Of a DNA stretch of 64,000 bases, positions 9,701 to 45,796 are shown piece by piece (position 1 is the first letter of the stretch; each line of letters opens with the position of its first letter). Position numbers and translations under genes: made by a program. Below the pieces are notes generated by a model, which was not told the origin of the DNA, ran no database searches, and worked only from the letters and a program-made list of their open reading frames with translations. The stretch comes from an uncultured virus (IMG/VR IMGVR_UViG_3300023110_000008) (taxonomy: Duplodnaviria > Heunggongvirae > Uroviricota > Caudoviricetes). Location of the stretch: the IMG/VR virus record IMGVR_UViG_3300023110_000008; one strand, given 5' to 3'.

Positions 9701-10494
9701 TAGATGGCGGTGGTAGTCAAGTTAGAAGTACAAGAAACATCTATTATGATGCAATTCATACAATGATACCTTCTATAACATTTAATAATACTCAAATATT
9801 CTCAAGTATTAATAGAACAGGTATGGGTTCACCAGAAGATTCAAACTTAGATACTGAATATGTAAGAAGAACTGCAAATGACTTTATTAAATTAAACGAT
9901 AACGTTTACTTCAGTAGACCAAGTGTTGTTGCATCACCCCTCAACGAATTAGAGAGAATGGGTAACCAGAGATCATTTAGATTATTACTACAAATGAGAT
10001 CATCAAATCCAAACGTATCACCTTACATTGATACAGGTACAATTGGTTGTCTAGGTATTATGAACAGAATTAATGATATTGATTCTGCTGCCGATCTATC
10101 AGATGGTGAAGTTTACGTACCATCAACAGAACCAGATGGCGATAACAACGCAATGGTATACACAACAAGATTGGTAAGTTTAAAGAATCCTGCTACATCA
10201 TTGAAAGTTTTATCAGATAACTTTAGACCACCTAACTCAGACATTAAAGTTTTATACAAACTCATCAAAAACGATGAAGATACACCAGTAGATGATTTAG
10301 GATTTGAATTCTTTAACTCAACTGGTGGTCCTGACACAGCTATTGATCAAGACGCTAGAAACTTTAAAGAATACGAATACACAGCAGACAACTTACCTGA
10401 ATTTACAGGTTTTGTAATTAAGATTGTAGGACAGGCTACAAACACATCTCAAGTACCAATAATTTCTGGTCTTAGATGTATAGCATTAGCATGA
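3727..10494 (+). CDS. Large virion structural protein, VrlC-like (DUF4815-type)
   Basis: N-terminal [28 protein letters not shown], plus [36 protein letters not shown] and DPLAESF motifs seen in T4-like marine phage structural proteins. Confidence 0.8.
8314..8560 (+). repeat. Pro/Thr low-complexity linker inside the VrlC-like protein
   Basis: About 80 aa of [14 protein letters not shown]...; locally C-rich DNA. Confidence 0.9.
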
Positions 10495-10694
10495 TAAAGG
10501 TTGAAGGACATTCAAATCTAATTAGAGAAGAAAGTTCACAAGCAATTATCAATACAGATGTTGAACAGTTTAAATTGGTAATGAGAAGAAGACAAATCAT
10601 TGCTTCTCAGAAAAAGGAAATAAATAGTTTAAGACAAGAAGTAACCGAAGTTAAGGAACTTCTTAGAAAGATAGAAGAGAAAATAAATGGCTAA
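10491..10694 (+). CDS. Small conserved coiled-coil protein
   Basis: ATGA overlap with the upstream stop. [23 protein letters not shown] followed by a C-terminal coiled coil. Confidence 0.7.
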
Positions 10695-12594
10695 AACAGT
10701 AGACAGTTTCAGTACTATAGAAAATTTTAGACAACAATATAATGTGTTGGCTAATGACGTGGGTGATATTAGTGGTCTTAGAACTACTGCTCAAGCAACT
10801 TTAGTTGACGCTGTTAATAGTGTAGAAGATAAAGCATTTTACTTCCAAGAGTATGTGTATATTGCAACTGGTGGTGAAACGCATTTCGAAGGCGCTGATC
10901 AGTTTAACAATGTGATGAAATTTGTACAAGACCGAATTCAGGTCTTTGTCAACGGTTCTCACTTAATAGAAGGTATAGACTATCAGATCACTAGCCAAAA
11001 TTCAGATGGTAGTTATGGAAGAATTAACTTACAAGGTGCTACATACGGTTCTGGTTTATCAAATGGCGATAGATTCGTTCTATATTCTTACACAGGTTCA
11101 TACTTAGGTACTGCATTAGCAAGTACAGGTGCTTCATACTGGCAGTTATCAGATACAAACTCAATCTTTAACAACAACTCAAATGGTGTTATTCTTAATG
11201 CTTCAAACACAAATAACACAACAGAATTAGAGACTGGTTTCAACATTCAACTTGCAGGTAAAACATTTGCAGAAGATGATATAACAATCACAACAGGCGG
11301 TGTAATGACTGCGCCTACAATTACTGATAGCACCATGAGTATCAACTCAGGTAGTATTACTGGTGGTGTAAATGCAAACTTTAGCGCAACAGTCAACGTG
11401 GGTACATTGAGTGATGGAACTGCAACACTTACAGGCGGTGATTTAAATGCCTCAACAGTTACAACTACTGGCGCTTTAACAGTTAATGGATTATCATCAC
11501 TGAATGGTAACATCGATTTAGGTAACGCATCTAGTGATACAATATCATTCACAGGTTCAATAGACTCAGATGTTTTACCAAGTGCTAACAACACACACGA
11601 ACTTGGAAGTAGTATACTAAAATGGCAGAACATTCATGCAACAGACATGACTGCAACTACTTTTAATGGTAATCTAAAAGGTGATGTTCTATCAAGTGGT
11701 GGTCAAACAATCATCGATAACGGTACAAATGGTACCGATGCTACTGCAAGATTATCTACAATTACAGCAGACGGTTCAACAACAGTTTTAAATGTATCAA
11801 CAGGACATCTTACAGGTACAGTTTCAAGTTTATCAAACCACGACACTGATGATTTAACAGAAGGAAGTTCTAATCTTTATTATACAGACGGTAGAGCAGA
11901 CGCTAGAATCGCAGCTGCTAGTATCGATGATCTTTCAGATGTAAATACAAGTGGCGCAAATACTAATAGTGTTCTTAAGTACAACGGTTCTAGTTTTGTA
12001 GTTGATGACATTGTAGAAAGAATTGCTGACACAGTCGGTACAATGATTAGTTCAAACACTGAATCAGGTCTTTCAGTTACCTATGATGACTCAGATAATA
12101 CTTTAGATTTAGTTTTAGATAATTCAGACTTTTCATTGACTGGTGCAGTTACAGGTTCAGTCACACAGACTGCTAAAGGCAATGTATCAATAAACACAAC
12201 AATGAACTCTGCTATATCTGATTTAACAGATGTAGGTAGTACATCTAGTGCATCTGCTGGTCAAATACTAGTATTTGATTCTAATGGTGATTTACAAGTT
12301 GCAGATAACTCAACAGGTACCGATTCTATATCAGAACAAACTAATAAATACTTTACAGATGATAGAGTAAATAGTGTCATATCTGCTGGTTCAGGTCTTG
12401 CGAAATCTTATAACGCAGGTTCTTCAGGTGATTCATTAGATGGTGTTGCTACTTTATCAGTGAACACATCAAACGGTGTTAAATTAGACGGCGATGATGT
12501 TGAGTTAGATTATGAAGTTGTTAGTGCTTCTTCACTATCTGGTACACCAAGTGGTACAGGTAAAGAAGTTGGACATTTATGGTTTGTGATATGA
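10687..12594 (+). CDS. Fibre/whisker-like structural protein (fibre 1)
   Basis: Gly/Ser/Thr-rich, with TDDLTEGSSNLYYTDGRA fibre repeats. C-terminus is PSGTGKEVGHLWFVI. Confidence 0.65.
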   Translation: MAKTVDSFSTIENFRQQYNVLANDVGDISGLRTTAQATLVDAVNSVEDKAFYFQEYVYIATGGETHFEGADQFNNVMKFVQDRIQVFVNGSHLIEGIDYQITSQNSDGSYGRINLQGATYGSGLSNGDRFVLYSYTGSYLGTALASTGASYWQLSDTNSIFNNNSNGVILNASNTNNTTELETGFNIQLAGKTFAEDDITITTGGVMTAPTITDSTMSINSGSITGGVNANFSATVNVGTLSDGTATLTGGDLNASTVTTTGALTVNGLSSLNGNIDLGNASSDTISFTGSIDSDVLPSANNTHELGSSILKWQNIHATDMTATTFNGNLKGDVLSSGGQTIIDNGTNGTDATARLSTITADGSTTVLNVSTGHLTGTVSSLSNHDTDDLTEGSSNLYYTDGRADARIAAASIDDLSDVNTSGANTNSVLKYNGSSFVVDDIVERIADTVGTMISSNTESGLSVTYDDSDNTLDLVLDNSDFSLTGAVTGSVTQTAKGNVSINTTMNSAISDLTDVGSTSSASAGQILVFDSNGDLQVADNSTGTDSISEQTNKYFTDDRVNSVISAGSGLAKSYNAGSSGDSLDGVATLSVNTSNGVKLDGDDVELDYEVVSASSLSGTPSGTGKEVGHLWFVI

Positions 12595-12595
12595 T

Positions 12596-14260
12596 ATGGC
12601 AGATAAAATTTACATTAAACACAATTTAAATGGCGGTAGTTTTCAGCAACCTTACATAGCAAGGCAACCTGCTAACATTCAAGAACCAAATATAAGACAA
12701 CAACCATCGATTGTTCCTTATACGTTTCAGTCTCCTTCGACTTATCAGAATCAACAACCAATAATTTATCGAAATCCTGTTAATAGGCAAAATCCTTTTA
12801 TAAGAAACGCACAGCAACCTAACATAAGATCGAGACAAAATCCTTTTATAAGAAACGCACAACAAACGTATACTTATCAGGCCGATGCACAATCACCTTA
12901 TATTGCTAATAGACAGAATCCGTATCCGTATCCTGCAAACGCACAAACACCGTTTACGTATCAACATCAAAGTCCTTCAACTTATAGAGACCCAAGAAAT
13001 GCACAGGTTATAGTTGCGTATCAACATCAATCACCTAGTACATATCGTGACCCAAGAAGTTACAGAAATCCTGTAAGTTATGCTTATAGATCACCTAGTA
13101 CATATCGTGACCCAAGAAGTTACAGAAATCCTGTAACATATCAGGCACAACAACCTACTACGTATCAACACCAGTCACCAGCAAATATAAACGCACAGGA
13201 GTCAAATCAACAACCTGTACCTTATAGAGTGCCTTCAACTTATCAAGCACAACAAAGAAGTCCTCAAACATATAGGGTGCCATCGATTTATCAAAATCCG
13301 TTTACGTATCAGGCGCAAAGACCATCGCCTTACATTTATCAATCGCCTTCGACTTATTCAGCACAAGGCCAAACGCCTTACATATATCAGTCACCATCGA
13401 CTGCTCAGGTACCAACATCATATGAAGGTATTGTAGGCGAATCAGCACTGTCTGGAAGTTCAACAGCAACAAGTGCAACTTTAGCTAATCAACCGAACCC
13501 TCAACCTTGGGGCTCAGGTATAAGTAATCCTGTTTGGGATGTATATCCTTTTGGTGGTAGTACGAATTATATAAATTCTGACCCACCTTCAGGAACTGCT
13601 TCTATGTTTAGTGTACCAAGTTGGAATACTCTTCAATTAGCAACTGGTAATCCTGGTTTTAATCATACCGAATGTGGTTGTTATATGCAATTTGATTTTG
13701 CAGCTAACAATAATACTGTTCAGACAAATCCTTTAGGGGCTTTTAGAATATCGTATGGTCATTATAACTCTTTTAGTAATAGTGGTTGGAGTTTTTATTA
13801 TAGATTTTATATGCCTATTACCGATTTGAATGCTAATGGTATAATTGACGATACTTGGAATTTTGATGTAGCATATTATGCAAGTGGTGAATCGGTATCA
13901 GGTACTCAAGCTCAAACAAATTGTTACGGAGGAGGTGGAAACAGTTATGGATTTTATCCACATGTTTGTGGAAAAACCAGAGGCCAATATTATAATTTCT
14001 GGTCTGGTTCAACTTCAAGGGGTGGATTTAATGGTACTCGCACTGCTAGATTTTTTAAGTGGGGTGTATACGACAGCACAGGTAATCCAGTACAATTAAC
14101 ATCAAATGATGTTTATTTTGGAATAAAAGCAACAAAAGGCACAGACACTTATTATACATATTTTCATATAGCTTCATACTTCAACGGTTCTTGGTCATCA
14201 AGCCCCATAAGTTTAAGAGCAGCATATAATGCAGGTAGTGGGGGGCCAATAATAGTATAA
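12596..14260 (+). CDS. Pro-repeat ribbon protein C with C-terminal globular (putative receptor-binding) domain
   Basis: Residues ~19-273 are Pro-delimited 6/8/10-mer words (PSTYRD, PFTYQHQS, PFIRNAQQ). Residues ~275-554 are a non-repetitive aromatic-rich domain. Confidence 0.75.
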   Translation: MADKIYIKHNLNGGSFQQPYIARQPANIQEPNIRQQPSIVPYTFQSPSTYQNQQPIIYRNPVNRQNPFIRNAQQPNIRSRQNPFIRNAQQTYTYQADAQSPYIANRQNPYPYPANAQTPFTYQHQSPSTYRDPRNAQVIVAYQHQSPSTYRDPRSYRNPVSYAYRSPSTYRDPRSYRNPVTYQAQQPTTYQHQSPANINAQESNQQPVPYRVPSTYQAQQRSPQTYRVPSIYQNPFTYQAQRPSPYIYQSPSTYSAQGQTPYIYQSPSTAQVPTSYEGIVGESALSGSSTATSATLANQPNPQPWGSGISNPVWDVYPFGGSTNYINSDPPSGTASMFSVPSWNTLQLATGNPGFNHTECGCYMQFDFAANNNTVQTNPLGAFRISYGHYNSFSNSGWSFYYRFYMPITDLNANGIIDDTWNFDVAYYASGESVSGTQAQTNCYGGGGNSYGFYPHVCGKTRGQYYNFWSGSTSRGGFNGTRTARFFKWGVYDSTGNPVQLTSNDVYFGIKATKGTDTYYTYFHIASYFNGSWSSSPISLRAAYNAGSGGPIIV

Positions 14261-14261
14261 A

Positions 14262-15191
14262 ATGCCAACCGTACAAGTAACATATAGCAATTCAAACGCA
14301 ACGCCAGGACAACAGCCGTATCCTTATATTGCTAATAGACAAAATTCTACTAACGGTACTACGCCTGTGCCGTACATTGCTAATGCCCGTGCATCAGCAA
14401 ACGCTCAGACAGTTGCTAATACTAGAGTGCCTATTCCTTACATAGCAAACGCACAGACAGCTGCTATCGCAAGAAGTCCATTTCAATCACCATACATTGC
14501 ACAACAACAGAATCCGTTTATTAGAAATAGACCATCACCTTATGTTGCAAATCAACGTCAACCAGCAGCTTATCAACATCCTGTTAACAGACAGAATCCG
14601 ATAATTGGTAGCTATCGTATATCAGCTAATTACAGACATCCTGTAAATAAACAGAATCCGTTTATAAGAAATAAACCTTCACCTACAACTTACAGACATC
14701 CTGTTGATAGACAGAATCCATTTATTAGAGATGCAAGACAGCCTTCAACATATCAGGCAACAGGGCGAACACCAACAACATATCAACATAGGCAACCTAT
14801 AACATATCCTACAACAGGTAGAACACCATTTACGTATCAACATAGATCACCATCGTTCTATCAACATAGAATACCATTTACGTATCAACATAGATCGCCA
14901 GATACATATAGGGTTTCTGCTTCTCAACCTTCACCATATATTGCAAATGCTCAGAATACAAGAAGTGGTAACATTGTTGTACAAACTACATATCAACATA
15001 GATCACCATTTACATATCAGATAACATATTCTAGCAGAAGACCTATAGGTCCTGTAGCAGAAGTTAAACAAGTTTATGTTAAAGATGCAGACGGTACTGT
15101 AAAACAATTAGAAGAAGCATACGTAAAAACTGATCCAACTACAGTAGAAAAAATACATACAAAAGTCCCATATTCCCAATTAAATAATTAG
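14262..15191 (+). CDS. Pro-repeat ribbon protein D (mirror partner of C)
   Basis: Same word vocabulary in reversed order. C-terminal VYVKD...AYVKT module. Confidence 0.75.
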   Translation: MPTVQVTYSNSNATPGQQPYPYIANRQNSTNGTTPVPYIANARASANAQTVANTRVPIPYIANAQTAAIARSPFQSPYIAQQQNPFIRNRPSPYVANQRQPAAYQHPVNRQNPIIGSYRISANYRHPVNKQNPFIRNKPSPTTYRHPVDRQNPFIRDARQPSTYQATGRTPTTYQHRQPITYPTTGRTPFTYQHRSPSFYQHRIPFTYQHRSPDTYRVSASQPSPYIANAQNTRSGNIVVQTTYQHRSPFTYQITYSSRRPIGPVAEVKQVYVKDADGTVKQLEEAYVKTDPTTVEKIHTKVPYSQLNN

Positions 15192-15208: not shown

Positions 15209-15544
15209 ATGGCAATTATAGCAAATCTTTACATAGATCAAGGTTCAGACTTCAGCATTACAGTAGATGTAACAAACTCTGATGGTTCAGTTTTAGACCT
15301 ATCAGGTTATTCAGCAGCTGCACAAATGAGAAAAACATATACGTCTTCTTCAGTAAGTGCAACATTTTCTACATCTATTTCAGAGGCTTCAGGTCAGGTC
15401 ACTTTGTCTTTAACAGATACACAAACAACTGCTCTAAATCCAGGCAGATATCTGTATGACTTAAACATAACAAGTTCTGGTGGTCAAACTAGTAGAGTTG
15501 TCGAAGGACAAGCTATTATAACGCCAGGTGTAACTAGGAGTTAA
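15209..15544 (+). CDS. Conserved small virion/fibre-attachment protein (Ig-like)
   Basis: NLYIDQGSDF...DLSGYSAAAQMRK...GRYLYD...RVVEG...PGVT pattern common in T4-like phages. Confidence 0.7.
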   Translation: MAIIANLYIDQGSDFSITVDVTNSDGSVLDLSGYSAAAQMRKTYTSSSVSATFSTSISEASGQVTLSLTDTQTTALNPGRYLYDLNITSSGGQTSRVVEGQAIITPGVTRS

Positions 15545-15546
15545 GT

Positions 15547-15789
15547 ATGGCAATTAAAGGTGTAGTAGGAAGAGTAGCAGGCATCTCAGGAAAGGTGCAA
15601 GGTCAAGGTAACTTTAGAGTAAAACAAGTTGCAATTGGTAACTCATCTACTAATGTCAATCTATCAGCTAAATCTATACAAGAACTATCAGATGTAGATG
15701 CTAGTGAAACAGATAACGGCCTATTGGCATATAACGCATCGTCTGATAAGTGGGTTACTACCACTGTTATAGACGGCGGAACATTTTAG
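15547..15789 (+). CDS. Small fibre-associated protein ending in IDGGTF
   Basis: ELSDVD..DNGLLAYNASSDKW motif and DGGTF terminus. SD GGAG upstream. Confidence 0.65.
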   Translation: MAIKGVVGRVAGISGKVQGQGNFRVKQVAIGNSSTNVNLSAKSIQELSDVDASETDNGLLAYNASSDKWVTTTVIDGGTF

Positions 15790-22301: not shown

Positions 22302-24077
22302 ATGGCGACAGGCTCACAGAAAGTAAAAACCCCCTCAGGTTGGAATTCAACCCAAGGTGCATGGGTTAAAACTGCTTCAAACACTTGGAAAGATGTAGAT
22401 CAAATTTACATTAAAACTCCTAGTGGGTGGAATAACGCATCAGGTCAACAACCTACACAACAACCATATCCTTATATTGCTAATAGACAGAATCCATTTA
22501 TAAGAGATGCACAACAGCCGTATCCTTATATTGCTAATAGACAGAATCCATTTATAAGAGATGCACAACAACCGTATCCTTATATTGCGAATGCTCAATC
22601 GCCTTATATTGCGAATGCACAAAACTCTGTATCATATAGACATCCTGTTAATGCACAGAATCCGTTTATAAGAAATAGACAAACACCAGCATTCTATAGA
22701 CATCCAGTAAATGCACAGAATCCGTTTATCAGAAACGCACAACAACCTGCTTCTTATCAACATCCTGTTAATGCACAGAATCCGTTTATCAGAAACGCAC
22801 AAACACCAGCTGGGTATAATCACCCTGTAAGTGCTCAGACTCCGTTTATAAGAAATAGACAAACACCAGCATCTTATCAACATCCAGTTGCTGCTCAAGA
22901 GCCTAATATTAGAAGCGGTCAAGAACCAAATATTAGGTCTGCACAAGAACCAAATATCAGAAACGCACAAACACCGTTTACGTATCAACATAGGTCACCA
23001 TTTACATATAGAGACCCAAGATCATATAGGGTGCCATTTACGTATCAACATAGATCACCATTTACATACCGTGATCCAAGATCATATCAGATACCGTTTA
23101 CGTATGCGTACAGATCACCATTTACATACCGTGATCCAAGATCATATAGGGTGCCATTTACGTATCAACATAGATCACCGTATACGTATAACCACAGATC
23201 ACCGTTTACATATAACCACAGATCACCGTTTACGTATAACCATAGATCGCCGTTTACGTATCAGGCAAGACAACCTAATAACGCAAGGACTCCATTTACA
23301 TTCCGTGCGCCGTTTACGTATCAGGCAAGACAACCTAATAACGCAAGGACTCCATTTACATTCCGTGCGCCGTTTACGTATCAGGCAAGACAACCAGTTG
23401 CTGCTAGACAACCTAATAACGCAAGGCAACCAAACAACGCAAGGCAACCAAATAACGCAAGGCAACCAAGTACTACACAACAAACAGCAAGATATCCATT
23501 TATCTTCCCAGCAGTGTACTTCTATCAACCGTTTGGTCCAATACCTGGTAACATTCCTGGAGGTGGCAAAGGATGTTTTGTTGCCGGCACAATGATATGG
23601 TTGGGCGATGGCAGTCATGTACCAATTGAAACAGTAGAAGTTGGTCAAGACGTAATGACTTGGAACGAAGAGACAAATAAATTAGAGATCGGTGTAGTCG
23701 AAGAGTTGATGCAACCAAGAGAAGTATCAATACATGAGATACATTTATCAGACGGTAGAATACTTGAAACAACTTCAGAACATCCATTTAGAACAATGAA
23801 TGGTGAATGGGGTGTTATCAACTTAGAGAAATTTAAAGAATTCCACAAAGAAGAAGGTGGAGATGAATTTGTAAATTCAGAAATCGCAGTCGGTGATCAT
23901 TTGATGACCATGACAGATGCTGTACTAGGTACAGAAATAGGACTAGAAATAATTAAAATAGAGGAGAAAGATTCACAACAGGTGTATAACTTGAAGAACG
24001 TTGGCGACAATCACAATTTCTTTGCAAATGGTGTATTAGCTCACAACTTCTTCTTCTTTAAACCATCACCTAAGTAA
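22302..24077 (+). CDS. Pro-repeat ribbon protein A with C-terminal Hint domain
   Basis: N-terminal VKTPSGW module, residues 55-389 Pro-delimited repeats, residues 425-582 Hint domain (CFVAGT...TSEHPF...VYNL...HNFFANGVLAHN). Confidence 0.85.
   Translation: MATGSQKVKTPSGWNSTQGAWVKTASNTWKDVDQIYIKTPSGWNNASGQQPTQQPYPYIANRQNPFIRDAQQPYPYIANRQNPFIRDAQQPYPYIANAQSPYIANAQNSVSYRHPVNAQNPFIRNRQTPAFYRHPVNAQNPFIRNAQQPASYQHPVNAQNPFIRNAQTPAGYNHPVSAQTPFIRNRQTPASYQHPVAAQEPNIRSGQEPNIRSAQEPNIRNAQTPFTYQHRSPFTYRDPRSYRVPFTYQHRSPFTYRDPRSYQIPFTYAYRSPFTYRDPRSYRVPFTYQHRSPYTYNHRSPFTYNHRSPFTYNHRSPFTYQARQPNNARTPFTFRAPFTYQARQPNNARTPFTFRAPFTYQARQPVAARQPNNARQPNNARQPNNARQPSTTQQTARYPFIFPAVYFYQPFGPIPGNIPGGGKGCFVAGTMIWLGDGSHVPIETVEVGQDVMTWNEETNKLEIGVVEELMQPREVSIHEIHLSDGRILETTSEHPFRTMNGEWGVINLEKFKEFHKEEGGDEFVNSEIAVGDHLMTMTDAVLGTEIGLEIIKIEEKDSQQVYNLKNVGDNHNFFANGVLAHNFFFFKPSPK
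23574..24047 (+). other. Hint (intein-like/BIL) auto-processing domain, no endonuclease
   Basis: Cys1 (tgt at 23574), block-B TxxH (TSEH), terminal His-Asn. The +1 residue is Phe. Confidence 0.9.
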
Positions 24078-24088
24078 TCTAAAGTAAA

Positions 24089-25219
24089 ATGGCAACAGGT
24101 TTTTATCCAGCAAATGCTCAAGGTATTACACAGGCTTCTGTTCCTGTGCAGACACCTTTTACTTTCCAGAATCCATTTACATTCCAGAATCCATTTACAT
24201 TCCAGAATCCATTTACATATCAGTCACCTTATATTGCAAATGCTAGACAACCTAATAACGCAAGGCAACCGTTTACTTTCCAGTCGCCTTATATTGCAAA
24301 TGCTCAACAACCTAATAACGCAAGGCAACCGTTTACTTTCCAGTCGCCTTATATTGCGAATGGTCAACAACCTAATATTAGATCAGCACAAGAACCTAAT
24401 ATTAGAAGCGGTCAAGAACCTAATATCAGATCAGCACAAGAACCTAATATTAGAAATGCTAGACAACCAGCAGCATATAGAGCACCTGTATCAGCACAAC
24501 AACCAGTAATTGGTAATGCTAGACAACCAGCAGGTTATAGACACCCTGTATCAGCACAAGAACCTAATATTAGATCAGCACAACAACCAGCAGGTTACAG
24601 ACACCCTGTATCAGCACAAGAACCTAATATTAGAGGCGCTAGACAACCTTCGACTTATCAACATAGATCACCGTTTACGTATCAACATAGGTCACCGTTT
24701 ACATATAACCATAGATCGCCATTTACATACCGTGATCCTAGATCATATCGTGTACCTAGCACATATCAACATAGATCGCCGTCTACATATCAAGACCCAA
24801 GATCATATCGTGTACCTAGCACATATCAACACAGATCACCATCTACATATCGTGATCCAAGAAGTTATAGAGTACCTAGCACGTATAACCATAGATCACC
24901 AAGTACTTACAGAGATCCTAGAGCATATCGTGTACCTAGCACATATCAACACAGATCACCAAGTACTTACAGAGATCCTAGAATAACACAATCGCCAAGT
25001 ACATATCAACATAGGCAACCTGTGACATATGCAAGACAAGGTCAAACTCCGTTTACCTATCAACATAGATCACCAAGTACATATTCTAGACAAGGTAGAA
25101 CTCCGTTTACCTATCAACATAGATCACCAAGTACTTACGCTACACAAGGTAGAACACCAGTGAATCGTTGGGACGGTGTATTGTCACAACAGTGGCCAGC
25201 ATCTCCAATTACGTCATAA
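24089..25219 (+). CDS. Pro-repeat ribbon protein B (mirror partner of A)
   Basis: Nearly all repeats; proline spacing is the exact reverse of protein A. Confidence 0.85.
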   Translation: MATGFYPANAQGITQASVPVQTPFTFQNPFTFQNPFTFQNPFTYQSPYIANARQPNNARQPFTFQSPYIANAQQPNNARQPFTFQSPYIANGQQPNIRSAQEPNIRSGQEPNIRSAQEPNIRNARQPAAYRAPVSAQQPVIGNARQPAGYRHPVSAQEPNIRSAQQPAGYRHPVSAQEPNIRGARQPSTYQHRSPFTYQHRSPFTYNHRSPFTYRDPRSYRVPSTYQHRSPSTYQDPRSYRVPSTYQHRSPSTYRDPRSYRVPSTYNHRSPSTYRDPRAYRVPSTYQHRSPSTYRDPRITQSPSTYQHRQPVTYARQGQTPFTYQHRSPSTYSRQGRTPFTYQHRSPSTYATQGRTPVNRWDGVLSQQWPASPITS

Positions 25220-25248: not shown

Positions 25249-26853
25249 ATGAGAAAATTAGAAACCTTAGAAGCCGTACAAGAAGCATTTCAAAATAGAA
25301 GATCACCATTTGGGCCAGATAGTGGCGATGAAGTCATTTTCATGGATCATTGTCATATTGGTAGTATCGAACTATCCAAAGACTACAAGGAAACTGAAGC
25401 ATATAAGTCTTTAGATTGGTTGATGAAGAATAAATTACCAAAACTAAAGCATGTTAAATGGAAAGAAGCTTCTAAATTGATAGACGAAAGATTATACGAT
25501 TATTCTGATACAACAAAATTACAACCGTTTAATCAATTACAACATCAAGCATATGTCTATCAATATTATTTGCAGTACGGTTATACTGAAAAACCTGAAA
25601 CACCAATACCTGGTCATTCTGGCTTTGATTTCAAAAACCGAAATGATGAATATCAAAAGATAACAGACTATACAAAATATGTTTTTGGTGCAGAAGGCCC
25701 AACTGAAAGACAATTAGAAATCAATAATTCAACTTATTATCACAGTGCTAAAGCACACTGGTTAATTGATAGTATCAAACATGAAGGCCTTTGGAATCCA
25801 ATCCAAGGTGTAGTGAACAAACCTTCTTCAGAAGAAGAACGATACACTCTTAGAATACATCCAGGTTCTGTAAGATCAGCAGTATTTGAAATGATAGATG
25901 ATCCAGATATGGAAATGTTTGTATGGGATAAGTTTGATTTATTTGATTCAGAAGTTCTATCAGCTGAACAAGTAATTGAATTATGGAAAGCCTTTGTTGA
26001 AAAGAAAGATAAACCAACACATCTTTCATTTACATATACAGAGGGTTTTATAGAAATGCATAGTGCTTTTGCTGATATCGGTTTTAGAAGTACAGTTACA
26101 GACTTCAATAAAAACATTATGAAAATGGCAAAAGGCAAACCTATATCAATCTATGTGGGTTACGATAGTCGTCATGGTGATCTTGCTGAAACAAATGTTA
26201 AGTTGCTTCAAAAAGGAATTGAATATGGTTTTGGTAAAGGTGACATGTATGAATTTATAAAAGACTGGCAACCTAATATTAAGATACTAGATGTATCAAA
26301 GATACCTGAATACACTAGAGAGTATGCTAATCAATCAACAGAGTTTACATATAGTAGATTCTTAATACCTTACCTAGAAAATTATGAAGGTTTCAGTATC
26401 TTCTTAGATGATGACATATTGTTTAGTAAGTCTATACTACCACTATTCTATTTCTTAGACCCAAAAGATGCTATTGCTTGTGTACAATACGATTTCGAAA
26501 ATCATAGTGATACTAAATTTGATGGCGAAAAGAATGTTTCTTATCCTAAGAAATTGTGGTCTAGTCTTATGGTATTCAATAATGCACACGAAGACTGTAA
26601 GAAGTTAACACCAGAAGTAGTGAATACAGAGTCAGGAAAGTATTTACATCAATTTGAATGGACAGACAAGATCAGTAGAATACCACCTAGACATATTATA
26701 ACTGAAGGATATGAAACACATTTAGACAAACCACATGCTTTAGCAATTCACTGGACACGTGGTGGCCCATGGATAAAAGACATGGATACCAGTGATATAA
26801 ATATGTTAGACGTATATGAAAGAGCGTATGCGAGAGCGAATAAAGTCTCTTGA
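25249..26853 (+). CDS. Two-domain protein: ParB/Srx-like N-terminal domain fused to a GT-A glycosyltransferase
   Basis: C-terminal QSTEFTYSRFLIPYL..YEG.SIFLDDD, YPKKLWSSLMVFN, YLHQFEW and IHWTRGGPW motifs. N-terminal LIDSIKHEGLWNPIQG...IHPGSVR. Confidence 0.7.
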   Translation: MRKLETLEAVQEAFQNRRSPFGPDSGDEVIFMDHCHIGSIELSKDYKETEAYKSLDWLMKNKLPKLKHVKWKEASKLIDERLYDYSDTTKLQPFNQLQHQAYVYQYYLQYGYTEKPETPIPGHSGFDFKNRNDEYQKITDYTKYVFGAEGPTERQLEINNSTYYHSAKAHWLIDSIKHEGLWNPIQGVVNKPSSEEERYTLRIHPGSVRSAVFEMIDDPDMEMFVWDKFDLFDSEVLSAEQVIELWKAFVEKKDKPTHLSFTYTEGFIEMHSAFADIGFRSTVTDFNKNIMKMAKGKPISIYVGYDSRHGDLAETNVKLLQKGIEYGFGKGDMYEFIKDWQPNIKILDVSKIPEYTREYANQSTEFTYSRFLIPYLENYEGFSIFLDDDILFSKSILPLFYFLDPKDAIACVQYDFENHSDTKFDGEKNVSYPKKLWSSLMVFNNAHEDCKKLTPEVVNTESGKYLHQFEWTDKISRIPPRHIITEGYETHLDKPHALAIHWTRGGPWIKDMDTSDINMLDVYERAYARANKVS

Positions 26854-26878
26854 AATTTAACACACACAAGTGTATAAT
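26850..26878 (+). promoter_or_regulatory. Sigma70-like promoter TTGAAA-N17-TATAAT
   Basis: Near-consensus hexamers with a 17-nt spacer. Confidence 0.5.
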
Positions 26879-26887
26879 GAGGTAATT

Positions 26888-27439
26888 ATGAATATGTTAA
26901 TTTATGATGAAAACAGTAATCTAATCATTAGAAAACCAAATGGATTAGAATACTCTTTCGAAAACACAGATAGACCAAATCTTGGTTTTGAATATGATGT
27001 ATTGGTGTACGATGACATCGAAGTTAAAATTGAGAAATGGGAAGAAGATAAATGTTTTAACGATCAGGTCAAAATAAATCTAAACTCAGATGAAATAGAT
27101 GCTATCGAAGAATATATCAATCAGTCTGAACCACCTGCTGGTGTTTCATTAAACAATCAGTATGCAAACAAACTATCTGATATGGCTCAAAACTATATCG
27201 ATGATCAAGTACAAGCATATGGTTTCCGTGATTTACTAGAAGTAACTATAGCAGGAAGAGAGGGCTCAAATCACCCTTTAAGATCAGATGCAAGAAGAGT
27301 TATGGAATATTCAGACGTTATATGGAATGTATACGTTAATGTATGTAATGAAATAGGCGAAACAAGAGAAGACACACTACAAGACTTTGAGTATTATTCA
27401 AATAATTTTCCATCACCTCAAAAGTCATTAATAGCATAA
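26888..27439 (+). CDS. Putative tail fibre assembly/chaperone-like protein
   Basis: ATG preceded by GAGG. C-terminal QNYIDDQVQAYGF...RSDARRVMEYSDVIW resembles helical fibre-assembly proteins. Confidence 0.45.
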   Translation: MNMLIYDENSNLIIRKPNGLEYSFENTDRPNLGFEYDVLVYDDIEVKIEKWEEDKCFNDQVKINLNSDEIDAIEEYINQSEPPAGVSLNNQYANKLSDMAQNYIDDQVQAYGFRDLLEVTIAGREGSNHPLRSDARRVMEYSDVIWNVYVNVCNEIGETREDTLQDFEYYSNNFPSPQKSLIA

Positions 27440-27440
27440 A

Positions 27441-28178
27441 ATGAGCCTGCTTGTAGAAAAGGTTGATTCTCCTTTTCATATTCAATCATTACCTTTAGAT
27501 AAAGTCTACATAATTGATAATTACTTAGAGACTTCTATATGGCATTGGATTAATCAAAGATTTACAAGCAGTAATATTTGGTCTAAAACAAATCAAGTGG
27601 GTAGCGAAAGCCCAACAGGATTACCTCACCATAGTTTTTGGGGTGCAAGTTTCTTCAAGGCTGATCGGGACAATAAAGATTTCGGATTTCACAATGTTGA
27701 AGGAGATATTGATAAGAAAGATTCTTATCCTGCTCACTATCTAAATAGAAGAATATGTACAGATTTCGGTTTCAAATGGAAAAGATTTCAGTACATGGGT
27801 TTAAACTCACAGACAATGGGTTGTCATGGAACAACTCATGCAGATTGTGATACTAATGATTCATGGAATTTATCTTTCTTATACTATTACAATACATATT
27901 GGAATCCCGAATGGGGTGGCACATTAAGATTATATGATGAACCTCAACAGGGTTTAGAAGGTAGAAACGAACATATTAAAAACCACCAAATCGCTGAAGT
28001 GGAGTTTGTACCAAATAGATTAGTAATGTTTGACGGCAGAATACCACACGGTGCAGATGCACCAAATGAAACTGCTAGATACATGGATAGAAGATCAATT
28101 GTTTTAAGAGGCGATGAAGTAGAGATAGGAGTTAGCGAAGAGTTTTATAATGCCAACGATAGACTTTATTACATATAA
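27441..28178 (+). CDS. 2OG-Fe(II) oxygenase (prolyl-hydroxylase-like)
   Basis: HxD (THADC), WNPEWGG, PNRLVMFDGRIPH and distal Arg (RRSIV). Confidence 0.8.
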   Translation: MSLLVEKVDSPFHIQSLPLDKVYIIDNYLETSIWHWINQRFTSSNIWSKTNQVGSESPTGLPHHSFWGASFFKADRDNKDFGFHNVEGDIDKKDSYPAHYLNRRICTDFGFKWKRFQYMGLNSQTMGCHGTTHADCDTNDSWNLSFLYYYNTYWNPEWGGTLRLYDEPQQGLEGRNEHIKNHQIAEVEFVPNRLVMFDGRIPHGADAPNETARYMDRRSIVLRGDEVEIGVSEEFYNANDRLYYI

Positions 28179-28998
28179 CGAGAAGACTCTCAGAGACTTT
28201 AAACCAGTTCTTGCAAAGAAATGGCATCCAGATTGGTGGAAAAGAATTAAAGTAAATGCAGTAGTACGTGGTGTTAATACTCAAACTATCAGAGCATGTC
28301 CTGCTATGGATGATTGGTTAAAGAGTGGTTGGTACCTACTTGCAAACAGAGACATGGAAGTTATCGTAGGTAACAATGCAAAAGACGGTGTAAGTACAAC
28401 AGACGTTAGAACTTTCGATCCTTCAGGAGAACATTACGCTTCACCTACACACCCCAAAGAACAATTTGAAAATGCTTTCGATTATTTTGGCGATGATGGT
28501 CCTGTCAAAGATGCATTTAAAATGAGAAACCCATGGAACATTATAACACCAGAGGGTTATTCATGTCTTTACTTAGACCCTTTCTTATTTCAAAATAGAT
28601 ACTTTGCTACATGGCAAGGAATTATCGATACAGATAAGTTCAATGTGAGCCAAGATAATTCACAAATAATTTTTTATCCTAGAGTTAATCATTCATTTAC
28701 TATAAAAAAAGGCACACCATTGTGTCAGGTTATTCCTTTTAAAAGAGAAGAATGGAATTCTACGTATACATTACGTAGTCCTAGAGAATTTCAGGACAAC
28801 AGAAGTTCAGTAACTTCACATGCAGAAATGATGTCTATGGATGAACAAGGTAGAAGAGAATACTCCGATGAATCAAGACTAAGGGGAACTAAACTTGGGC
28901 CATATAGAAACGAAGGTTATTGGCAAGAAAAAGGTAAATACTTCAAAGAAGATGAACCACCACCTGAATGTCCTTTTCATAATGAGGTAGAAGAATGA
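28150..28998 (+). CDS. Conserved phage protein (DUF6065-like beta fold), typically next to oxygenases
   Basis: TIRACPAMDD..SGW, TPEGYSCLY..PF, GIIDTD and IKKGTPLCQVIPFKRE motifs. Confidence 0.6.
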   Translation: MPTIDFITYNEKTLRDFKPVLAKKWHPDWWKRIKVNAVVRGVNTQTIRACPAMDDWLKSGWYLLANRDMEVIVGNNAKDGVSTTDVRTFDPSGEHYASPTHPKEQFENAFDYFGDDGPVKDAFKMRNPWNIITPEGYSCLYLDPFLFQNRYFATWQGIIDTDKFNVSQDNSQIIFYPRVNHSFTIKKGTPLCQVIPFKREEWNSTYTLRSPREFQDNRSSVTSHAEMMSMDEQGRREYSDESRLRGTKLGPYRNEGYWQEKGKYFKEDEPPPECPFHNEVEE

Positions 28999-29690
28999 GT
29001 GTAAAATTATTATTTCCTGCATTTGTTTTTCATAGAGATTTTTTAGGCAAAGATGCAGATAAAGAACCTACATTGATGAATGCAGAATACTTTGATCTCT
29101 TAAAAAGAGAGATTGATGGTATGCGAAAGAAAGATCCTGTTGGTCGAAAGATATCAAATGCATATACAGGTTGGCAATCAAATGATGGTTGCGATCAACA
29201 TCCAACTTTTATTAAATGTATAAGATCAATTAAACGTTTAGTCAGAGACGAGTTATTACCTTTCATGGGATTAAACAAAGATGCACACCGTGTTGATATG
29301 CATAACTCATGGGCTAACATTAATGACAATGGTGCATGGAACAGACCTCACTTACACAATGGTTGTTTCTATTCAGGTGTATTTTATATACATGCTGATG
29401 GTGACGAAGGCGATTTAACTTTCATAGATACAAATCATAAAGTTGCAGGAGCATTTCCTGGCAACAATAGAATGATTGAATCTTATCAGATACAACCTAA
29501 GACAGGTCACTTATACATTTTTCCTAGTGGGTTAATGCATATGGTCGAACCCAATCTAACAAACAAAGATCGATACAGTATATCTTTTAATTTAGATGTC
29601 AATTGCATGGATGATAAAAATTCACGAATTGGTTGGAATGATTCAAATTTTGAGTATGATATAGACGAAAGCGGCAACTTGATCCTATAA
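28995..29690 (+). CDS. Putative 2OG-Fe(II) oxygenase, TIGR02466-like
   Basis: GWQS, SWANIN, NRPHLH, YSGVFY, IFPSGLMHMVEPN and RYSISFN motifs. Confidence 0.8.
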   Translation: MSVKLLFPAFVFHRDFLGKDADKEPTLMNAEYFDLLKREIDGMRKKDPVGRKISNAYTGWQSNDGCDQHPTFIKCIRSIKRLVRDELLPFMGLNKDAHRVDMHNSWANINDNGAWNRPHLHNGCFYSGVFYIHADGDEGDLTFIDTNHKVAGAFPGNNRMIESYQIQPKTGHLYIFPSGLMHMVEPNLTNKDRYSISFNLDVNCMDDKNSRIGWNDSNFEYDIDESGNLIL

Positions 29691-42703: not shown

Positions 42704-42731
42704 AAAGGGGTCTTTTTAGACCCCTTTTTTT
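42704..42731. terminator. Bidirectional Rho-independent terminator
   Basis: AAAGGGGTCT-TTTT-AGACCCCTTTTTTT between convergent gp23 and the glycosyltransferase gene. Confidence 0.85.
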
Positions 42732-43569
42732 ATACGATTGTTTTATTGATGTAATCTATACCAGAGAAGTTCTTATAATCATTGAGCGATCTTTTCCACC
42801 CTATCCCATAGACTCCTTTGATCTTTCCGTGAATGATATCACTGTATCTTTGCATTGATCTATCTCTCATTCTACCCCAATCTTGGTGTTTCTCCCAATG
42901 TAGTGGTCTAATGTTTTTTCTATAATCATGAAATATTGGGTTATTAGGTACATGATATATGTCATAACCCATACAATATGCACGGAGAGCTAACGAGGGT
43001 TCTTCTCCTTCAAAGTAAAAGTGAGGGTCATATGGCACATCTCTACAGAAGTCTGTACTACTGAACAGATTGCCTGCTGATAACAGATAACCTTGATGAA
43101 TGTTTGGAGTATCTGAAACAGAGATTTGAGTATTGAAATGTGTGTCATACTGCCATAGATTGTTCTTATCGACTCTAAGAACGTGTGTGTGACTACTTTT
43201 AACACCTAGGTCTTTTACATCTCTAGGATAACCAGTTATTATAGAATTAGGTGGAAGATTACTCATTTGACCGAGTAAAATAGTATCCCAACCTACTTCA
43301 AATTTAGTATGAGAATCTATCTGTAGATACCACTGTTCATCTTCTATAAGATTCTGAATTAGATGTCTAGCGAAACATGGACCTCTAGCACTACGCCAGT
43401 CCATGAAGTTATAGTACTTGACCATTTTTGCAACGTTTTCGTTGTACTGTTCTGATTGATCACATACTGCAATATGAATTCTATTAGAGTCAGCATTATC
43501 CAAACATGAAGATATGGTATCTTCAAGTTGTGGGTCCATAAACGAGGCAATTGATATAAAAATATTCAC
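42730..43569 (-). CDS. Skp1-hydroxyproline GlcNAc-transferase-like glycosyltransferase (GT60/Gnt1-type)
   Basis: IFISIASFMD, ARGPCFAR, YLQIDSH..F..GWD, ITGYP, VPYDP..YF.GEE...ALRAY..GYDIY..P...FH.Y. Confidence 0.8.
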   Translation of the reverse strand: MNIFISIASFMDPQLEDTISSCLDNADSNRIHIAVCDQSEQYNENVAKMVKYYNFMDWRSARGPCFARHLIQNLIEDEQWYLQIDSHTKFEVGWDTILLGQMSNLPPNSIITGYPRDVKDLGVKSSHTHVLRVDKNNLWQYDTHFNTQISVSDTPNIHQGYLLSAGNLFSSTDFCRDVPYDPHFYFEGEEPSLALRAYCMGYDIYHVPNNPIFHDYRKNIRPLHWEKHQDWGRMRDRSMQRYSDIIHGKIKGVYGIGWKRSLNDYKNFSGIDYINKTIV

Positions 43570-44681: not shown

Positions 44682-45125
44682 ATGAACTTAGATGAATTAA
44701 AAGCAATGTGGAAAGAAGATTGTAAGGTAGATGATATCGAATTAGATACGTCTAGTTTAGAAGTACCAAAACTACATGCTAAGTACTCAGAGTTATTGAC
44801 CGATGCATCAATTCAACTCAAAAATGCCAACTTAAAATACCAACTACTTTTAAAAGATAAGTGGTTATGGTTTCATGGTAAAATGGACCAAACAAAAATC
44901 AAAGAACTTGGCTGGGAAGATGACCCTTTTGATGGTCTAAAAATTATGAAAAATGATATGCCTGTTTTCTTTGACGCTGATCCCGATCTACAGAAAGCAA
45001 GAGCACAAATAGAATACTTTAAAGAAGTAATCGACTTTCTAAAAAGGGCAATGGACAACATAACATGGCGTCACCAAACTATTAAGAACACAATAGAGTG
45101 GCGTAAATTTATGTCAGGTGCATAA
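44682..45125 (+). CDS. uvsY: Recombination mediator UvsY
   Basis: W.ED..VDD.ELD..SL.VPKLHAKY...IKNTIEWRKFMSG. Confidence 0.92.
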   Translation: MNLDELKAMWKEDCKVDDIELDTSSLEVPKLHAKYSELLTDASIQLKNANLKYQLLLKDKWLWFHGKMDQTKIKELGWEDDPFDGLKIMKNDMPVFFDADPDLQKARAQIEYFKEVIDFLKRAMDNITWRHQTIKNTIEWRKFMSGA

Positions 45126-45796
45126 TGAATTTAAGAAACTATATTTGGATTTACGAAAGCTATTTCACTGAAGAAGAGGTCAAAACGATCAATGCTATGA
45201 GTGAAAAAGTGCCTTTCCAAATTGGTAAAGTTGGTAACAAGGCAGAAGATCCAGATGGTGAAACAGAGGGTGGTACAGAAGACTCTCATATCAGACAATC
45301 AGATGTAAAATGGTTTGAACAAGACTTTTTACCTGAAGAACTTACAGAAAAACTTCATGCAGGTATTGATATGGCAAATGCAGAGGCAGGTTGGCATCAT
45401 GAATGGACTTGGCCTGAACCACATCAATATACAGTGTATAATCATAGACCAGATTCTCCTGTAACAGGAGATCATTACACATGGCATACAGATTCATCTG
45501 ATATGAATCAGAGTGATCATGGTATCAGAAAACTAAGTTCTACAGTTCAACTATCACATCCAGATGACTACGAAGGTGGTCATTTTCAATATATCAATTA
45601 TCAAGGAGTATTTGATAAATTAGGGCGCAATACAAATATAGATGCAGGCAATTATATAAACACAGTTCCATTTTCAGCCAAGTCGATTGGTACTTTAATT
45701 GTGTTTCCTTCTTTTGTATATCACCAAGTGACACCTGTAACTAAGGGTACTAGAATATCTTTAGTGAGTTGGTTTCACGGCAAACCCTATGTCTAA
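45125..45796 (+). CDS. 2OG-Fe(II) oxygenase (PKHD/prolyl-hydroxylase-like)
   Basis: YTWHTD, RKLSSTVQLS.PDDYEGG, VFPSFVYHQVTPVTKGTRISLVSW. Confidence 0.88.
   Translation: MNLRNYIWIYESYFTEEEVKTINAMSEKVPFQIGKVGNKAEDPDGETEGGTEDSHIRQSDVKWFEQDFLPEELTEKLHAGIDMANAEAGWHHEWTWPEPHQYTVYNHRPDSPVTGDHYTWHTDSSDMNQSDHGIRKLSSTVQLSHPDDYEGGHFQYINYQGVFDKLGRNTNIDAGNYINTVPFSAKSIGTLIVFPSFVYHQVTPVTKGTRISLVSWFHGKPYV

Follow-up and report, generated by a model that had tools for sequence, protein, structure and literature searches.

Two adjacent phage proteins with mirror-image proline barcodes, and their proposed pairing as an antiparallel two-chain fibre

Two adjacent genes, here called C and D, of the 64,000-nucleotide stretch of DNA analysed as a whole (the window) encode proteins whose repeats mirror each other: when residue i of C is set against residue 280-i of D, 23 prolines of one chain face prolines of the other. 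The source is an uncultured marine T4-like phage, and the pair lies in its pelagimyophage-like host-recognition cluster. The explanation that we put forward for the whole of the data, and that on balance we consider somewhat probable, is that C and D form an antiparallel, in-register heterodimeric fibre consisting of a ribbon, a clasp end and a variable-head end. The features concerned are the following.

10687..12594, plus strand: upstream fibre-like protein, 635 aa, in an operon-like run with C, its stop codon abutting the start of C
12596..14260, plus strand: gene C, an ORF of 554 aa with a putative N-terminal clasp strand, then the mirror repeat, then a variable C-terminal domain
12596..12649, plus strand: C residues 1-18, conserved N-terminus of the M-[AS]-D-[DE]-I-[YF] type, opposite the D tail in the mirror alignment
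12650..13414, plus strand: C repeat region, residues 19-273, with 38 prolines, all at odd positions and mostly with gaps of 6 or 8
13448..14257, plus strand: C residues about 285-554, C-terminal domain outside the repeat, hypervariable among relatives of C type
14262..15191, plus strand: gene D, an ORF of 309 aa, 1 nt after the stop codon of C
14304..15044, plus strand: D repeat region, residues 15-261, with 33 prolines confined to odd positions; 23 of these face a C proline at i+j=280
15045..15188, plus strand: D residues 262-309, a conserved tail at the C-terminus containing two strands of the V/I-Y-V-K type; in the mirror alignment it falls at the same end as the C N-terminus
15209..15789, plus strand: two small conserved ORFs (111 aa and 80 aa) 3' of D
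22302..25219, plus strand: sister pair A (22302-24077) and B (24089-25219), with mirror register i+j=412
62707-63645: CsgG homologue

The register had been proposed in an earlier note on this DNA, which counted 23 ungapped proline coincidences at i+j=280; the recount gives exactly that number, and the six pairs quoted there (C19/D261, C67/D213, C119/D161, C167/D113, C223/D57 and C261/D19) are all Pro/Pro. In the reversed-register test the peak is at 280, with the next reversed registers reaching 15 coincidences and the best forward offset 18. The peak also stands clear of shuffled sequences, as the reading in the note requires: in two null models that preserve the proline spacings, with the maximum over all registers as statistic, 23 was reached by 0/5000 gap-shuffled pairs (mean 14.5, sd 1.2, highest 20) and by 0/5000 order-1 Markov pairs (mean 14.5, sd 1.4, highest 21), and adding the forward registers still leaves 0/5000 in each. 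The prolines of every repeat region keep to a single parity (C 38/38, D 33/33, A 53/53 and B 50/50). The matched share for C/D is modest, 23/33 D prolines (0.70). Where a proline is unmatched, its partner is S, T, A, V or I at 17/22 sites versus 70/176 in the background (Fisher p=2.7e-4), which bears out the small or beta-branched partners described earlier, and the word pair PSTYSAQGQT / PYPYIANRQN offered as an example is correct to within one residue, D28-19 lying opposite C252-261.

Facing residues were further scored with a log-odds matrix built exclusively on 25 pairs of other phages, which yields +118 bits for C/D at 280 and -65 or less at every other register. With prolines left out, the matrix still selects 280 (+88 versus a mean of -161, sd 53, over 303 registers). 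Concerning partner specificity, the same 25-pair matrix is negative at all A/C, A/D, B/C and B/D registers, where the best proline counts are 18-21; the C/D barcode is distinct from that of A/B, as had been claimed. A matrix trained on 24 A/B-type pairs only recovers the proline-count register in 6/9 C/D-type pairs; for L073 it chose a register 8 away, and for L016 and L017 it gives no positive register. The exact contact register of C/D is uncertain: position-wise mutual information at the proline-parity positions yields 1.29 bits for shift 0, with higher values of 1.66 for -2 and 1.47 for -4, hence the non-proline residues fix the physical register only within about 2-4 residues, and this quantity does not discriminate as a register test because whole words face whole words.

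The prolines bound words of two complementary classes, which always stand opposite each other: Tyr/Arg words, such as P-F-T-Y-Q-H-R-S, and Asn/Ile/Ala words, such as P-N-I-R-S-A-Q-E, with Tyr/Phe/His opposite Ala/Gln/Arg at the even positions. Among 289 distinct 8-residue word pairs the top six corrected covariations are X2-Z6, X2-Z8, X6-Z4, X6-Z2, X8-Z4 and X8-Z2, all joining the N-terminal half of one word to the C-terminal half of its partner, as an antiparallel contact predicts. The order of the words is irregular, since the gap series shifts within one protein between 8-8-8-8, 6-6-8, 10-8 and 6-6-6-6 blocks, and block periods of 18, 20 and 24 residues occur. A nucleic-acid palindrome as the cause of the mirror was rejected, both because the DNA holds only inverted repeats of 14-27 nt at 70-93% and because the reverse complements of codons cannot give Pro from Pro.

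The sister pair A/B obeys the same rule, with 47 of 49-53 prolines matched at sum 412, secondary register peaks at +/-20 (33 and 28 matches) and up to 30-31 proline coincidences when A and B are each compared with themselves. The earlier view of C/D as a replicate of the A/B pattern holds: it is a second mirror pair, partner-specific and written in the same word-complementarity code. In A the repeat is joined to a type-A intein-like domain, which starts at Cys425, the sole Cys of the protein, contains a T-x-x-H block and ends in His-Asn followed by Phe, a non-nucleophilic +1 residue. By the criteria of PMC4031507 these features point to a putative type A bacterial intein-like (BIL) domain. Its match to Pfam Intein_splicing has an E of 5e-8 and 33.3 bits, versus a curated cut-off of 35.8, and that to PDB 2lwy an E of 2e-4, the intein-like part being the only part of A that matches PDB chains. 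Neither C nor D carries such a domain.

The mirror rule persists in 41-47 related gene pairs, whose partners change length in step. Two adjacent barcode genes are found in 65/78 related viral loci, and among 47 distinct pairs a median of 0.95 of the shorter partner's prolines is matched versus 0.53 in 2162 non-partner combinations. The spans of the repeats (about 100-540 residues) correlate between partners (r=0.94), 39/41 unique pairs lie above all 200 shuffles, and 5/41 fall below 0.7 matched prolines. Same-parity runs in relatives reach 76 consecutive prolines, and the gaps (n=3101) are dominated by 8 (1503) and 6 (822), multiples of 3 making up only 29%. The chain ends are flush in most pairs, the residue facing the last repeat proline lying ~1-17 residues from the partner's N-terminus. 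Given this conservation with matched length changes, antiparallel side-by-side pairing is the natural reading. It should be noted that all loci belong to one phage lineage with conserved synteny, and the pairs are thus not phylogenetically independent. None of 5 longer relatives is a self-mirroring, fused single-chain hairpin (best 13/29 prolines), which is weak evidence of the absence of such fusions.

Physical antiparallel contact between C and D is supported indirectly, by the covariation of facing halves and by the matched lengths. The heterodimer is probably a two-stranded beta ribbon, a class of structure that calls for the strict two-residue periodicity and the confinement of proline to one parity on both chains that are seen here, and we propose in addition that it is present in the virion, functions as a fibre and zips up during translation. 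Residue i of C would lie beside about residue 280-i of D over some 245 positions, and a continuous two-stranded antiparallel beta ribbon appears the most economical geometry; by pure geometry, 243 facing positions at 0.33 nm would extend over ~80 nm. Even positions would be the backbone-hydrogen-bonded pairs (Tyr/Ala, His/Arg, Phe/Gln, Ser/Asn) and odd positions the non-bonded ones, where the NH points outward and which would be the sole place tolerating proline. A proline opposite a proline would then cap both edges against sideways growth of the sheet. The two word classes and the irregular succession of 6-, 8- and 10-residue words would jointly serve as a barcode that sets both the choice of partner (D for C, B for A) and the register, as in a non-repetitive nucleic-acid duplex. 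As D starts 1 nt after C and its N-terminus pairs with the last-made repeat of C, zippering from the distal end during translation of D is possible.

The two ends of such a ribbon would differ. At one, the C N-terminus, with M1, D3, I5, G13, Q17 and Q18 invariant among 9 C-type proteins, would meet the D tail, with A266, K269, H299 and P303 invariant among 18 D-type proteins, in a possible clasp that could attach the pair to the virion, presumably at the baseplate or on another fibre. At the opposite end the hypervariable C-terminal domain of C, which may be globular, would sit beside the D N-terminus, presumably as a host-binding head, and is a candidate distal receptor-binding domain. Among the 9 C-type proteins the C-terminal parts cannot be aligned, one relative (L075) excepted; a region search with this domain returned only itself, and its single-sequence AF2 model has a mean pLDDT of 35 and is unusable. 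Complex prediction for C(1-295)+D gave scores of 0.00 and 0.00 with the two alignments A1 and A2, the partner fold being uncertain, and is neutral on binding. In the ESM Atlas, the matches of D are confined to clusters of hypothetical viral proteins (scores 0.80-0.87, short of the level of 0.9), and the structure matches obtained there are meaningless, the Atlas model of D by itself having a pLDDT of 0.47. The phage fibres described so far are parallel trimers, and to our knowledge a two-stranded ribbon 1 nm thick and 80 nm long has no precedent.

A comparable known structure is the tip needle of T4 gp37 (domains D10-D11, PDB 2XGF), which, in the part of PMC6957217 dealing with it, belongs to a one-gene homotrimer and is held by seven iron ions bound by histidines. 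Like the proposed C:D fibre it is a thin distal shaft with strands running both ways along the axis and a receptor-binding end at its tip; it is roughly a fifth as long, and in C:D the outgoing and returning strands would be two gene products with a complementary word code. The needle also lends weight to the main alternative, namely that the antiparallel C:D pair is real and is the asymmetric unit of a thicker fibre, either a six-stranded needle of three C:D pairs about a threefold axis, after the fashion of the gp37 tip, or two ribbons face to face, an arrangement with a real but minor chance of being correct. The homotrimer is described in the same part of that source (PMC6957217) as having a domain made of an early and a late segment of the chain (residues 811-881 and 1010-1026), so that every chain goes out and back. 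A bundle of C:D pairs would fit the same sequence data, and the large-small complementarity of the even face (Tyr/Phe/His versus Ala/Gln/Arg) is typical of a packed core; Tyr, Phe and His would share one ribbon face and neither face is cleanly polar, which suggests further packing. Moreover, the attachment sites of phage fibres are threefold or sixfold, and the genes adjoining C and D encode ordinary fibre-like proteins. However, proline occupies about 30% of the outward NH positions on both edges, which speaks against regular hydrogen bonds with additional strands. The H-x-H spacing, which is the histidine iron-site pattern of the gp37 needle, occurs 0 times in A, B, C and D, and the repeats have no sequence relation to solved chains, a profile of 18 D-type proteins giving 0 matches at E<=1 against all PDB chains.

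The blocks of 6+6+8 residues, with their superperiod of 20, and the A/B peaks at +/-20 resemble the periodicity of coils, and Pro is common at the corners of solenoids. The chains could therefore be interleaved in a two-start beta solenoid, a short thick rod of about 15-20 nm with prolines at its corners and words as its sides. We regard this as improbable: the coil length would have to vary between blocks (8-8-8, 6-6-8, 10-8, 6-6-6), each side would have to direct three bulky residues (Phe, Tyr, His) into a narrow core, regular 20-residue blocks are few in C/D, and the even spacing of all 33-76 prolines would not be required. Strict parity over so many consecutive prolines, combined with varying block periods, fits an unbroken strand better than a coiled solenoid.

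Readings without an antiparallel strand pair in the virion fare worse. The conserved 2OG-Fe(II) oxygenase and glycosyltransferase-like genes 3' of the sister pair might indicate that C and D do not touch, being bound in opposite polarity on a twofold-symmetric partner or read in opposite directions by one modifying enzyme. This is very improbable, as the complementarity is heterotypic (Tyr/Arg versus Asn/Ile/Ala) where a common template would favour like against like, and as facing halves covary at the level of residues and the matrix assigns partners specifically. Hardly any likelihood is left for C and D as secreted curli-like subunits of a phage-encoded CsgG channel, outside the virion. A CsgG homologue is encoded on the same DNA, and Gln, Asn and Tyr are abundant in the proteins; the relevant part of the pelagimyophage paper (PMC7029224) notes that counterparts of CsgA/CsgB have not been identified for the phage curli operon. 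Against such a role, no hydrophobic stretch marks the N-terminus (within the first 35 residues the longest such run is 2-3, a crude proxy), no Pfam curlin match is found, and the fibre-cluster genes lie about 47 kb from csgG. In addition, a proline every 6-8 residues opposes amyloid stacking. Finally, that the register peak is a structurally meaningless by-product of the repeat-block architecture is scarcely credible, since, although quasi-periodic spacings do raise the background (shuffled maxima of 20-21 for C/D, self-comparisons of 30-31 for A and B), neither null reached the observed count, the proline-free score is independent of the proline count, and the rule holds in 39/41 pairs of differing block orders and lengths and fails in non-partners.

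Other elongated assemblies offer partial likenesses to the antiparallel C:D ribbon. The streptococcal antigen I/II stalk pairs an Ala-rich helix with an antiparallel Pro-rich repeat within one molecule, in an alpha plus polyproline-II arrangement of period 3; it too is a long narrow stalk of two repeat types set antiparallel unit by unit, with a variable domain at the far end. C/D differs in being two polypeptides with the same even proline spacing, and this spacing, with 29% of gaps being multiples of 3, indicates beta-strand periodicity, unlike the polyproline-II of antigen I/II. Collagen-like G-X-Y is likewise absent, with 0 runs of three G-x-x triplets in A-D. The "polar zipper" of Perutz reportedly joins antiparallel beta strands through polar side chains, in homotypic, low-complexity sequences without control of register; the polar Gln/Asn/Arg-rich repeats of C/D would also pair as antiparallel strands, but heterotypically and with facing prolines setting register and partner. 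Heterodimeric coiled-coil zippers, built of alpha-helical heptads and usually parallel, share a sequence-coded partner and register along an elongated two-chain rod, of which C/D would be the beta-strand, antiparallel counterpart, ten or more times longer than is typical.

A broader joint reading, which we think unlikely to hold in full, would combine the pairing code with orthogonal barcodes, co-translational zipping, a covalent A-B hairpin and enzymatic modification. Word classes and proline punctuation would enable any chain to encode its partner and its register across hundreds of residues, the A:B and C:D barcodes would coexist orthogonally in one virion, and the chains would zip co-translationally, distal end first. 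The intein-like domain of A would present a thioester on a poly-Gly tether exactly where the B N-terminus ends, and the free amino group of B could attack it to give one covalent hairpin. The adjacent 2OG-Fe(II) oxygenases and the glycosyltransferase-like product might then modify exposed Pro, Asn or Arg.

If the proposed C:D ribbon is right, it would be a naturally occurring equivalent, in beta strands, of the leucine zipper or of base pairing in nucleic acids. Its simple, readable code (facing prolines plus Tyr/Ala, His/Arg, Phe/Gln, Ser/Asn, Thr/Gln and Arg/Ile pairs) would determine which two chains pair, and in what register, across 100-540 residues. Phage host-recognition fibres, otherwise parallel trimers, would gain a new type of architecture, and unannotated host-recognition-cluster genes of abundant marine myophages would acquire a role. 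For protein designers the ribbon would offer orthogonal, length-programmable heterodimeric rods, with about 40 natural pairs of differing barcodes as a ready test set for deriving and checking the code. In the main texts of the literature searched, we found no description of such a mirror-coded two-protein design.

Regarding the locus, C and D stand between a VrlC-like giant gene and the neck genes, a region called the "host recognition cluster" of pelagimyophages in the part of PMC7029224 that treats it. C and D each match 0 Pfam families (Pfam-A, E<=0.01) and 0 PHROGs (E<=0.001). Searches of the GenBank phage collection by blastn gave no match, nor did tblastn with D against 50,697 phage records, where the low-complexity filter may hide relatives; the sole tblastn match of C in the same records, in a Vibrio phage, covers DNA repeats on the strand antisense to an annotated gene and was discarded as spurious. 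Among cultured phages the closest by gp8 is Pelagibacter phage Mosig (32%), whose two genes after the VrlC-like gene show no proline periodicity. Contigs of four RNA libraries match parts of C and D with 0-1 differences, patchily and at low depth, and could stem from DNA carry-over; an RNA-contig joint inside D, whose letters resemble gene A, was set aside as paralogue cross-mapping. A fibre-sized ORF 5' of the pair is present in 6/6 C/D-type loci examined, and an ORF of 110-111 aa follows D in 6/6. The one in the window, of 111 aa, has a weak LtfC-like beta-sandwich match (E 4.6e-5, under the curated cut-off).

Genes C and D, whose ORFs fill 12596-15191 with a one-nucleotide spacer between them, encode proline-punctuated repeat proteins with no match in Pfam or PHROG families, and are accompanied in the window by a sister pair, A and B:

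Mirror-pair genes
12596-14260, same strand as D: gene C, ORF of 554 aa
14262-15191, same strand as C: gene D, ORF of 309 aa
22302-24077 and 24089-25219: genes A and B, the sister pair, in the host recognition cluster

When one chain is read backwards, so that residue i faces residue 280 minus i of the partner, exactly 23 prolines of C fall on prolines of D, as the earlier note had counted, and all six residue pairs that it quoted are Pro/Pro. The next reversed registers reach 15 coincidences and the best forward offset 18. Repeat-region prolines keep one parity throughout (38/38 in C, 33/33 in D, 53/53 in A and 50/50 in B), and no parity bias of prolines was seen in neighbouring ORFs. Two spacing-preserving nulls were used, one shuffling the gaps and the other drawing them from an order-1 Markov chain (5000 replicates each), with the maximum coincidence count over all registers as statistic. 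For C/D the null maxima have a mean of 14.5 (sd 1.2-1.4, highest 20-21), and 23 was reached by 0/5000 replicates in either null, hence the proposed register peak stands against shuffled sequences. For A/B, with register 412, 47 coincidences stand against null maxima that average 22.7 and never exceed 33. The proposal that small or beta-branched residues face unmatched prolines also held, with S/T/A/V/I at 17/22 positions vs a background of 70/176 (p=2.7e-4). A DNA-level inverted repeat was considered as source of the mirror, and none underlies the pattern.

Concerning the remaining residues, the mirror alignment shows two classes of proline-bounded words, Tyr/Arg (types P-F-T-Y-Q-H-R-S and P-S-T-Y-R-D) and Asn/Ile/Ala (P-N-I-R-S-A-Q-E, P-Y-I-A-N-A-Q-x and P-V-N-A-Q-N), words of the two classes always lying opposite each other. 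Over 26 clean pairs (7500 facing positions), P/P occurs 965 times at proline-parity positions, 3.2x expectation, together with Q/T, T/Q, R/I and I/R (3.6-5.8x), while the other parity is enriched in Y/A, A/Y, S/N, N/S, H/R (9.9x), Q/F and F/Q. A log-odds matrix trained on 25 pairs, leaving out the window's own proteins, gives C/D +118 bits at 280 and at most -65 at all other registers, and A/B +487 at 412; A/C, A/D, B/C and B/D are negative in every register. With proline-containing pairs removed, 280 is still the sole positive C/D register (+88; mean -161, sd 53, 303 registers).

To determine orientation, 289 distinct facing 8-residue word pairs, which are phylogenetically non-independent, were oriented as Tyr-word (X) vs Asn-word (Z). 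The top six APC-corrected mutual informations are X2-Z6, X2-Z8, X6-Z4, X6-Z2, X8-Z4 and X8-Z2, so that covariation links the N-terminal half of one word to the C-terminal half of the word opposite, and pairs expected from a parallel arrangement (X2-Z2, X8-Z8 and similar) are negative. Covariation sums of 8, 10 and 12 are supported about equally, and shift 0 has a lower raw mutual information than shifts -2 and -4, so that the physical register is fixed only within a few residues.

The rule extends to a family. Among 5207 candidates, relatives of D at E<=1e-3 fall into 356 clusters, almost all of them metagenomic proteins without a name, and a viral contig scan yielded 78 loci. If a barcode gene is taken as an ORF with 15 or more same-parity prolines, 65/78 loci have two adjacent ones on the same strand, 8/78 one and 5/78 none; in the latter two classes the match lies close to a locus or contig end. 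Best reversed registers of the 47 distinct pairs range from 205 to 598, and the pairs match a median 0.95 of the shorter partner's prolines (range 0.57-1.00), compared with a median of 0.53 and a 95th percentile of 0.75 for 2162 cross-locus non-partner combinations. After crude de-duplication to 41 pairs, partner repeat spans (102-542 residues) correlate with r=0.94, 39/41 pairs lie above all 200 gap shuffles, and the matched fraction is >=0.9 in 26, 0.7-0.9 in 10 and <0.7 in 5. Since the same-parity run is part of the protein definition, even gaps in this set hold by construction and the evidence for parity is the run length, up to 76 prolines. Pairs of C/D type, in which the N-terminus (M-S-D-E-I-Y type) is conserved and the C-terminal domain varies, are the less perfect ones (0.57-0.85). 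A matrix trained solely on 24 A/B-type pairs recovers the proline register in 6/9 C/D-type pairs; of the misses, L073 peaks 8 away and L016 and L017 have no positive register. Two loci, L022 and L070, show two nearly equal registers 8 apart (e.g. 310 and 318), each over half of the pair, suggesting that one chain has a single 8-residue word without counterpart, a bulge. In L072, L074 and L076 the order is reversed, the short B-type gene preceding the A-type one, and the match is still perfect (27/27 prolines). None of 5 longer relatives is a fused hairpin, no C/D-like gene appeared in the cultured phages searched, Atlas and PDB sequence searches gave no match to the repeat, and full-text literature searches listed no description of such proteins.

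Sequence statistics and conservation with compensating changes thus give good support to antiparallel, partner-specific pairing of C with D, and equally to the claim that C/D replicates the A/B pattern. Since a two-residue periodicity is kept strictly for hundreds of residues, we infer one unbroken beta strand per chain, the two forming a two-stranded antiparallel ribbon. In such a ribbon outward NH groups occur only at residues of non-hydrogen-bonded pairs, where a proline costs no hydrogen bond and blocks edge-to-edge aggregation; tolerance of proline in this single parity class would account for the parity rule. Pro opposite Pro would also preserve a locally symmetric backbone. With 243 facing positions and 0.33 nm per residue, the ribbon would be about 80 nm long. 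The main rival is a bundle of several C:D ribbons; two chains in a beta solenoid fit less well, as coil length would need to vary between blocks. The ribbon form, its stoichiometry and its presence in the virion are predictions, and RNA-library contigs from four runs, covering parts of C and D with 0-1 differences, give a weak hint of transcription.

For the proposed C:D ribbon, conserved ends are the C-type N-termini and the D-type C-terminal tails, which share one end in the mirror alignment, the C strand I-Y-I-K lying <=2 residues from the D strand V-Y-V-K. Among relatives the C-type C-terminal domains cannot be aligned with one another, and some carry a Hint domain; the end of the C repeat faces D residue 7, and the D N-terminus is nearly flush with it. 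Receptor-binding fibres usually have a conserved attachment and a variable tip, a polarity which the C/D ends match.

The window, part of a 105-kb viral contig with an estimated completeness of 58%, is the structural module of a marine, T4-like myophage. It encodes a gp8 baseplate wedge (best cultured match Pelagibacter phage Mosig, 32% identity), a 2255-aa DUF4815 (VrlC-like) protein and, downstream, neck, sheath, tube, portal and capsid genes. A pelagimyophage study describes, between VrlC and the neck genes, a variable host recognition cluster, lists GT8-type transferases, peptide deformylase and a CsgG homologue, and states that identification of tail-fibre proteins was not possible (PMC7029224). 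The window shares all four of these features, and both C/D and A/B sit inside its host recognition cluster. The phage-encoded homologue of CsgG, the curli secretion channel (62707-63645, Pfam E 1.5e-50), fits the curli gene cluster reported for pelagimyophages (PMC7029224). Upstream of C (10476-12594), a 72-aa ORF and the N-terminus of a 635-aa fibre-like protein resemble by eye two genes behind the VrlC-like gene of Mosig (L079, 27610-28759); if this likeness is real, pelagimyophage synteny reaches the point of mirror-pair insertion.

It should be noted that A carries a type-A intein-like domain within residues 425-591 (23574-24077); the layout given next is that of A and of the related loci L011, L014, L018, L024, L029, L044 and L059-L063. 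The A-type repeat end, facing partner residue 1-5, is followed by 4-13 glycines, a Cys opening the domain (residue 425, the only one of A), a His-Asn end and a tail of 4-12 residues with Lys at or near its end. Where the domain is absent, relatives have Gly-rich sequence and a short Lys-ending tail, as if it had been inserted at the Gly-rich end. Behind A/B (25249-29690) lie a GT8-like glycosyltransferase (match below the Pfam threshold), a 183-193 aa ORF, a 2OG-Fe(II) oxygenase (PF13640) and a ~300 aa ORF, a run conserved by ORF sizes in 16/16 A/B-type loci; in six loci (L009, L014, L024, L029, L047, L078) Pfam finds the oxygenase in 6/6 and the transferase in 4/6. The run may point to repeat proteins that are hydroxylated or glycosylated, or may reflect no more than lineage synteny. 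Further oxygenase genes at 45125-45796 and 28995-29690 make three in the window (PF13640, PF13759), and a GlcNAc-type glycosyltransferase (42730-43569, PF11397, E 3e-46), directly behind the major capsid gene, is the sole sizeable minus-strand gene of the structural run.
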